Source: Escherichia coli (GTDB lineage Bacteria; Pseudomonadota; Gammaproteobacteria; Enterobacterales; Enterobacteriaceae). Taken from it: DNA of 64,000 nt. The translations under genes and the position numbers were made by a program. This document shows positions 39,278 through 41,363 of the stretch, piece by piece. Location of the stretch: the NCBI RefSeq assembly GCF_001677475.2, contig NZ_CP015229.1, one strand, 5' to 3'. A model generated the notes under the pieces. The model had not been told where the DNA came from, made no database searches, and was given only the letters and a program-made list of their open reading frames with translations. Each line of letters begins with the position of its first letter. Positions within the stretch are counted from its first letter, which is position 1.

Positions 39278-39979
39278 CTACAACTTCAGAATTTCTTTCA
39301 CAAACGGAATGGTCAGCTTACGTTGCGCGGTAATCGACGCACGATCCAACTGATCCAACGTCATAAATAGCGTGCGCATTTCTCTGTCGAGCCGCTTCAG
39401 CAAGAAACGCCCCACATCTTCCGGCAGTTCAAAACCACGCAAACGCGCGCGTAACTGTAGCGCCTGCAACTTATCTTCATCAGAAAGTGGCTGCAATTTG
39501 TAGATCTGCCCCCAGTCGAGACGCGACGCGAGATCCGGTAATCCAAGATTCAACTGCCGCGGTGGACGATCGCCGGTGATTAACAACCGTGTTTTGCCCG
39601 ATTCCAGAATTCGATTGTAGAGATCGAAAATCGCCATCTCCCACAACTCATCGCCTGCAATACACTCAATGTTGTCGATACAGACCAGCGACAAATGCTC
39701 CATACCGTCGAGCACTTCCGGAACAAACCAGGTGCGTTTATCCAGCGGGACATAGCCCACCGCATCGCCACGCTGCGACAATTCCGCGCAAGCCGCGTGC
39801 AGCAGATGGCTGCGCCCCGCGCCTTCGCGTGCCCAGAGATAGATGTAACCGCTATGTTCCTGACGCAGCACGTTTTGCAGCGCGGCCAGTAAAGAGGAGT
39901 TATCCCCCGGCCAGAAACTTGCAAAGGTTTCGTCGTCAGGAAGATAAAGTGGCAAAGAGAGCTGTGCCGGTGTGTTCAG
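39278..39979 (-). CDS. hda: DnaA regulatory inactivator Hda
   Basis: ORF track gives 248 aa from an upstream start; functional K-12 Hda is 233 aa from a non-AUG (CUG) start at ...LNTPAQLSL; end chosen accordingly. AAA+ Walker motifs present. Confidence 0.85.
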
Positions 39980-40073
39980 AGATACCTCAACCAGGATTTC
40001 ACAAAATCGCGAGAAGTTTACCACAGAATCCCATGATGTTTGAACCGGGCAGCAATACTGCCCGGTCGGTACA

Positions 40074-41363
40074 TTATTTGTCTGTTATATCCGCGTCTTC
40101 TGCGTCCAGCACCACTTCTTCAGGGCGCAGCACACTAATCAGTTTGAAGATCAAACTTAAGCCGATACCGACGATGGTCGCCAGCGCCATACCTTTCAAC
40201 TCCGCCGCGCCGATGTTTACCTTCGCGCCACTGACACCGATGATCAAAATCACGGAAGTCAGGATCAGGTTCTGTGCTTTGTTGTAATCCACTTTCGATT
40301 CGATCAAAACACGAATACCGGAAGCCCCGATGACACCATAAAGCAGCAGCGAAACGCCGCCCATCACCGGCAATGGGATCATCTGGATAGCAGCAGCCAG
40401 TTTACCGACGCAGGAAAGCAGGATAGCGAAAATCGCCGCCCCGCCGATAACCCAGGTACTGTAAACACGGGTGATCGCCATCACGCCAATGTTTTCCCCG
40501 TAGGTGGTGTTTGGCGTGGAGCCAAAGAAGCCGGAGATCACGGTCGACAAGCCGTTAGCAAACATCGAACGGTGCAGACCTGGATCGCGCAGCAGATCTT
40601 TTTTGACGATATTAGCCGTTACTACCAGGTGCCCTACGTGTTCGGCAATAACCACTAACGCCGCTGGCAGAATTGTCAGAATGGCAAACCACTCGAAGCG
40701 CGGCGTATAGAGGGTTGGCAGCGCAAACCAGTGAGCATTAATAATCGGCGTGGTATCGACAATTCCCATTGCGAAAGAGAGCGCGTAGCCCACCAGCACG
40801 CCAATTAAAATCGGGATAATTGCCAGGAAACCACGAAACAGCACGGAACCTAAAACCGTAACCGCCAGGGTGGTAATGGAGATGATGATGGTTTTGGAGT
40901 CTGGCGTTTGCCCTTCAGCCGGGAGTAAACCCGCCATACCGGCAGCTACGCCCGCCAGCTCCAGACCGATGACGGCAACGATTGCGCCCATTGCCGCAGG
41001 TGGAAACAGCACGTCCAGCCAGCCGGTCCCCGCTTTCTTCACGATAAAAGAAACCAGGCAGAACAGCACGCCGCACATAATAAAGCCGCCCAGCGCGACT
41101 TCATACCCCAACGGCAACAGTAACAATACCGGTGAAATAAAGGCAAAGCTGGAACCAAGATAAGCCGGAATTTTCCCTTTACAGATGAAGAGATACAGCA
41201 GCGTTCCAATACCGTTAAATAACAGTACAGTCGCCGGGTTAATATGAAATAAGACGGGCACCAGGACGGTTGCACCAAACATGGCGAACAAATGTTGCAA
41301 ACTAAGCGGGATTGTCTGTAAAAGTGGCGGTCTTTCACTCACCCCGATAGCACGGCGCGTCAT
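40074..41363 (-). CDS. uraA: uracil:H+ symporter
   Basis: ORF 40074..41405 trimmed to 429 aa ([15 protein letters not shown]...); NCS2-family membrane protein. Confidence 0.93.

Follow-up and report, generated by a model that had tools for sequence, protein, structure and literature searches.

The hda locus

The stretch of DNA analysed here (the window; 64,000 nt of contig NZ_CP015229.1, assembly GCF_001677475.2) comes from an Escherichia coli that is not K-12 and is 99.4% identical over 1 kb to MC4100, of the K-12 lineage. On its minus strand it carries hda, the gene for the DnaA inactivator Hda (Table 1), in a 1-kb region that was found at 95-100% identity in 5,425 of 5,426 complete E. coli genomes, with uraA and arsC as the flanking genes. 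The hda gene of E. coli K-12 (b2496, formerly yfgE) encodes the same 233-aa protein, lies in the same uraA-hda-arsC neighbourhood and has the same GAGGT-ATCT-CTG initiation region, which occupies positions 39988-39977 (-) of the window; read as the reverse complement, the sequence across the start region is ...catcATGggattctGTGgtaaacttc.... The loop of the uraA-hda hairpin holds an A in the window and a G in the remaining four of the five E. coli sequences that were compared, MC4100 included; this is the sole difference, and the initiation region of MC4100 is identical to that of the window. The 45 nt upstream of the CTG are likewise identical in all five E. coli sequences, and the GTG reading frame discussed below is open in each of them.

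The longest open reading frame for hda in the ORF listing, 40024..39278 (-), has 248 codons and contains the CTG of hda as its codon 16; positions 39935-40024 make up its first 30 codons. The original prediction, which named no strand, had described this reading frame with the same first 15 residues, and had it begin at an upstream ATG. The frame is there as described and its first codon is a GTG, the only nearby ATG (40034-40032, -) being out of frame with hda and opening an ORF of 11 codons. An extension of 15 codons stays free of stops by chance with a probability of ~0.49, i.e. (61/64)^15, and therefore the long ORF is in itself no evidence of coding. The choice of start also moves the clamp-binding motif QLSLPL, as the prediction had argued: it stands at residues 21-26 if counted from the GTG and at residues 6-11 if counted from the CTG.

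Table 1. Features of the hda start region, with positions in the window
Feature	Position	Strand	Remarks
hda coding sequence	39278..39979	-	CTG start 39979-39977, TAG stop 39280-39278; 233 aa, DnaA inactivator Hda
CUG initiation codon of hda	39977..39979	-	From the conserved CTG and the literature
Shine-Dalgarno sequence GAGGT of hda	39984..39988	-	Followed by the 4-nt spacer ATCT (39983-39980), then CTG
Clamp-binding motif QLSLPL of Hda	39947..39964	-	Residues 6-11 of the 233-aa protein
15 additional codons of the 248-aa ORF	39980..40024	-	Read as non-coding: 5' leader and promoter
GTG opening the 248-aa ORF	40022..40024	-	Old annotated start; choice of gene callers restricted to ATG/GTG/TTG
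TGgTAAACT, candidate extended -10 promoter element of hda	40015..40023	-	Inferred
TTCAAA, possible weak -35 of hda	40044-40039	-	18-nt spacer to the candidate -10
Hairpin ACCGGGCAG-TATTG-CTGCCCGGT, probable uraA 3' stem-loop or terminator	40044..40066	-	From sequence and alignment

Identity of the product and earlier annotation

Both equivalog profiles for Hda recognise the product well above their cutoffs (NCBIfam NF005982, 476.6 bits against 268; TIGR03420, 281.4 bits against 194.8). In the long ORF, the alignments of these profiles begin at residues 14 and 21 and never cover residues 1-13. Read from the CTG, the 233 aa of the protein match chain E of PDB entry 5X06, "DnaA regulatory inactivator Hda", at 100% identity; that chain is made up of a 20-residue tag followed by MNTPAQ.... 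The leucine of LNTPAQ, which the original prediction had named as the reported first residue, is the one encoded by the CTG. Arg153, the Box VII arginine finger of the AAA+ domain, is present in the protein here, and its role in Hda is treated in the crystal structure paper (PMC5397184). A beta-clamp-binding motif of the form QL[SP]LPL is present near the N-terminus as QLSLPL; the structure of Hda with the clamp numbers this clamp-contacting segment 6-QLSLPL-11 (PMC5397184), which is the numbering of the form read from the CTG. From its identity to E. coli Hda, we infer that the protein encoded here would be active in RIDA, the clamp-dependent stimulation of DnaA-ATP hydrolysis.

The CUG start of hda is already known: it has been published since 2008, is in RefSeq and is built into a solved structure. 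In each of the four E. coli RefSeq records examined, hda is a 702-nt coding sequence that begins at the C of this CTG and encodes the 233-aa protein WP_001307333.1. EcoGene 3.0 describes hda as the earliest E. coli case of a demonstrated CTG start, on the experimental evidence of Su'etsugu et al. (2008; J Biol Chem 283:36118), and yfjD as the second confirmed case (PMC3531124). RefSeq, EcoGene 3.0, the PDB entry and the comparative analysis below thus agree on the start that the original prediction favoured.

Other annotations have placed the start elsewhere. The old K-12 annotation (NC_000913.2) gave hda 747 nt and that of Klebsiella pneumoniae (KPN_02819) gave it 678 nt, both in the supplement of Kim et al. 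(2012), and the database lengths of the hda product range from 221 to 272 aa (proteins P0001-P0120). The Hda calls of 225 and 221 aa, for example the 678-nt KPN_02819, cut into the clamp-binding motif, while the 235-aa calls that open with MLLNT begin on a GTG belonging to the Shine-Dalgarno sequence GAGGTG. Similarly, the apparent conservation of the residues EV before LNT in database proteins is GAG-GTn, i.e. the Shine-Dalgarno sequence read in frame.

Conservation around the CTG codon

For the comparison, we took one genome per species, which gave 80 Enterobacteriaceae loci with 92-100% protein identity, and worked with an alignment of 81 sequences. CTG is codon 1 in all 80 genomes, never TTG, GTG or ATG. 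GAGGT stands at -9 to -5 in 79 of them and lies 1 nt off this position in the remaining one, and all five of its columns are 100% conserved in the alignment. An in-frame CUG with a Shine-Dalgarno sequence at functional spacing is therefore found in 79 of the 80 Enterobacteriaceae genomes, and also in five further Enterobacterales loci. The latter have GAGGTnnnn-CTG and comprise loci with homologues named Yersinia, Erwinia, Pectobacterium and Photorhabdus, and the locus of protein P0118, of unknown taxon, so that, Plesiomonas aside, CUG and GAGGU are shared by all 85 Enterobacterales that were sampled. The Shine-Dalgarno sequence of the Erwinia and Pectobacterium loci is lengthened to GAGGTGAT, and thus the GTG often annotated as the start there is part of it.

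The reading frame on either side of the CTG behaves very differently. In the 15 "codons" before it, the conservation of the three codon positions is 0.81/0.80/0.82, with no period of three; in the first 20 codons after it, the values are 0.94/0.99/0.80, which is a coding signature. Length differences that are not a multiple of three occur upstream of the CTG in 69 of the 81 sequences, as opposed to none of the 81 downstream. Going upstream from the CTG, one meets an in-frame stop within 7 codons in 28 of the 80 genomes and within 15 codons in 60 of them, and only 7 of the 80 relatives still have the GTG at codon -15 as an open start in frame. This comparison supports the reading of the 15 upstream codons of the 248-aa ORF as non-coding, in keeping with the earlier claim that these residues have no counterpart in functional Hda: they show no coding conservation, in addition to being skipped by the profiles as far as residue 13. 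In 46 of the 80 Enterobacteriaceae genomes, the frame upstream of the CTG holds no ATG, GTG or TTG before a stop is reached, and in these the CTG is therefore the sole route to a protein that includes the essential QLSLPL. Another in-frame CTG, codon 11 of the long ORF, was considered and rejected, as it lacks a Shine-Dalgarno sequence and is not conserved.

The leucine codons that follow provide a measure of how freely such codons are exchanged. The codon of Leu9 is TTG in 42, CTG in 37 and TTA in 1 of the 80 genomes, and the position of Leu11 is filled by six different Leu codons and one His codon. Since the exchange of CTG and TTG is tolerated at an ordinary leucine and is absent at codon 1, the invariance of that codon suggests selection for CUG specifically. 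This is an argument and not a P-value, the genomes being phylogenetically related; for this reason, and because CTG is the preferred leucine codon of enterobacteria, the invariance alone is weaker evidence than the raw count of 80 genomes would imply.

The locus L004 (1401-1520), from a GTDB species representative labelled E. coli SCPM-O-B-8794, encodes an Hda that is 99% identical to that of the window and carries a 1-nt insertion, AAATCCCTGG as compared with AAATCCTGG, which breaks the frame of the 248-aa ORF. In Escherichia albertii an in-frame stop lies close by, upstream of the hda CTG.

A promoter-like element and the leader of hda

Apart from the Shine-Dalgarno sequence, only one block upstream of the CTG is fully conserved. 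It has the form TGnTA(A/G/C)ACT and was found in all 80 Enterobacteriaceae genomes, 33-39 nt before the hda CTG, with the TG, TA and ACT columns 100% conserved in the 81-sequence alignment; the five Enterobacterales loci from outside the Enterobacteriaceae carry variants of it. The copy in the window, TGGTAAACT at 40023-40015 (-), consists of TGn directly followed by a -10 hexamer whose second base is A and whose sixth is T, and its TG is the TG of the mis-called GTG start. It looks like an extended -10 promoter of hda, with a predicted transcription start near 40008/40007, ~7 nt past TAAACT. An hda mRNA that started near 40008 would not contain the GTG.

A consensus scan of 39850-40250 for promoters and terminators made no call; it needs 9 of 12 hexamer matches, and TTCAAA plus TAAACT reach 8 of 12. 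In the study of Kim et al. (2012), a single transcription start site is assigned to hda, 620 nt upstream and with 2 reads. The SMRT-Cappable-seq supplements do not mention hda, nor does the text of the Ribo-RET study, the part of the Cappable-seq annotation that was covered has no entry close to hda, and our literature search on the hda promoter found none. The predicted 69-nt leader folded no better than its shuffled versions (-10 kcal/mol, z = 0.6) when we looked at RNA structure at the start.

We also considered whether TGTGGTAAA (40017-40025, -), which spans much of this element, could be a DnaA box. It has 2 mismatches to TGTGNATAA, and Enterobacter and Leclercia, with CGTG, lack its first T; the extended -10 was preferred because it fits the invariant columns better. 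The likeness to a DnaA box thus overlaps the putative -10 of the gene for a DnaA inactivator, a probable coincidence.

Further upstream, the uraA stop codon TAA is at 40076-40074, which puts the end of uraA only 50 nt upstream of the GTG of the long ORF. The hairpin in this interval has a GC-rich stem of 9 bp that begins 8 nt past the uraA stop, and the stem is kept across genera whereas the loop varies (81 sequences). Since no T-run follows, the scan did not report the hairpin as an intrinsic terminator.

Competing start sites

We regard it as very probable that Hda is translated here from the CUG as a protein of 233 residues, and that the 45 nt upstream are leader and promoter DNA. The alternative that fares best keeps the CUG as the start of the main 233-aa Hda and adds a little initiation at the GTG on transcripts that read through from upp-uraA, the result being a minor 248-aa isoform. 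The proximity of uraA to the GTG and the hairpin, which may not terminate fully given that it lacks a T-run, would allow for such read-through, and the identical, open GTG frame of the five E. coli sequences is consistent with it. Moreover, as a codon the GTG is by far the stronger of the two, initiation in the constructs of Hecht et al. (bioRxiv 10.1101/063800) being ~1-2% of that of AUG for CUG (0.02-3% across constructs) and 10-100% for GUG and UUG. However, the GTG lacks a convincing Shine-Dalgarno sequence, and even among the nearest Escherichia relatives the extension is not kept, given that L004 has its insertion and E. albertii its nearby stop, so that any long isoform would be lineage-specific noise and not a maintained product. 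On balance, we consider a dual use of the two codons unlikely.

It is far less probable still that Hda is made mainly or solely in the 248-aa form begun at the GTG, even though this form is the longest ORF, opens with a canonical start codon, had the 747 nt of the old K-12 annotation and represents a cluster of 3,510 member sequences (P0001; listed sources Logan and ENA). The GTG persists as an open start in few relatives, and frame-breaking indels and stops are common upstream of the CTG; the only sequence before it that resembles a Shine-Dalgarno is a weak GGA 4 nt ahead; its TG belongs to the invariant promoter-like element; and RefSeq, the PDB entry and EcoGene use the CTG, with the curated profiles passing over the start of the extension.

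A start at the TTG of Leu9 (39955-39953), which would give a protein of ~225 aa and at which several database entries begin (P0070, P0111 and P0112, besides the annotation of KPN_02819), is effectively refuted, the least probable of the three: it would drop Q-L-S of the clamp-contacting QLSLPL (PMC5397184), its codon is not kept as a canonical start among the 80 genomes, it has no Shine-Dalgarno sequence, and the coding conservation of period three already begins at the upstream CTG.

Discussion

The initiator fMet-tRNA decodes the near-cognate CUG, so that the product begins with Met, and GAGGT is complementary to the 3' end of the 16S rRNA. In initiation at the CUG of hda, the invariant five-nucleotide Shine-Dalgarno sequence GAGGU, 4 nt upstream, would place the 30S subunit on this weak codon, and the start so selected would put the clamp-binding motif QLSLPL where the crystal structure has it, at residues 6-11. 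The most likely purpose of so weak a codon is to hold Hda at low abundance. An initiation efficiency of ~1-2% of that of AUG would be a plausible way to limit an inactivator of DnaA, an idea that the strict conservation of the codon supports. That the weak start codon is a selected, lineage-wide device for setting the dosage of Hda and not an oddity of K-12, with the old GTG lying within hda's own extended -10, is a proposition that in our judgement stands evenly balanced between right and wrong.

Weak start codons are known from other E. coli genes. Both infC and pcnB start at AUU, and the weak codon there limits or regulates expression. Like hda, these two genes and yfjD, with its CTG, have a near-cognate start decoded by the initiator tRNA, with initiation of low efficiency. 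For hda, the proposed dosage role is argued from conservation, and the gene is not known to be autoregulated through IF3 or another factor.

The core fact of the CUG start, known since 2008 and present in RefSeq, opens no new question. What our comparison adds is supporting detail and a modest hypothesis, in which the weakness of the start codon is selected and a promoter overlaps the old start. In practical terms, the start codon decides the position of the clamp-binding motif, the protein that is expressed for biochemistry, and the mislabelling of hda by gene callers.

Outside the Enterobacteriaceae, the annotated start of hda is a codon other than ATG in all six loci sampled (L088-L093), three of them having GTG, two TTG and one CTG. 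The GTG starts are those of Shewanella sediminis, where TGA lies directly upstream, of Ferrimonas balearica, and of an Aeromonas-like contig, where an ATG at -3 is also possible; the TTG starts are those of Psychrobium and of Vibrio stylophorae, the latter with no other canonical start before a stop. Plesiomonas, itself a member of the Enterobacterales, has CTG as annotated, with a GTG possible at -2. The hda genes of these other Gammaproteobacteria (Shewanella, Vibrio, the Aeromonas-like contig, Ferrimonas and Psychrobium) resemble that of E. coli in having a non-ATG annotated start and only 3-8 residues at the N-terminus ahead of QLSL, but they differ from it in that the codon is GTG or TTG and not CTG, and in their upstream neighbours, e.g. 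a DUF2066 gene instead of uraA. Weak start codons may be used in hda across the family, as far as a small sample of six loci can indicate. Among 11 JGI-sourced Hda homologues, the literal first residue is V or L in 10.
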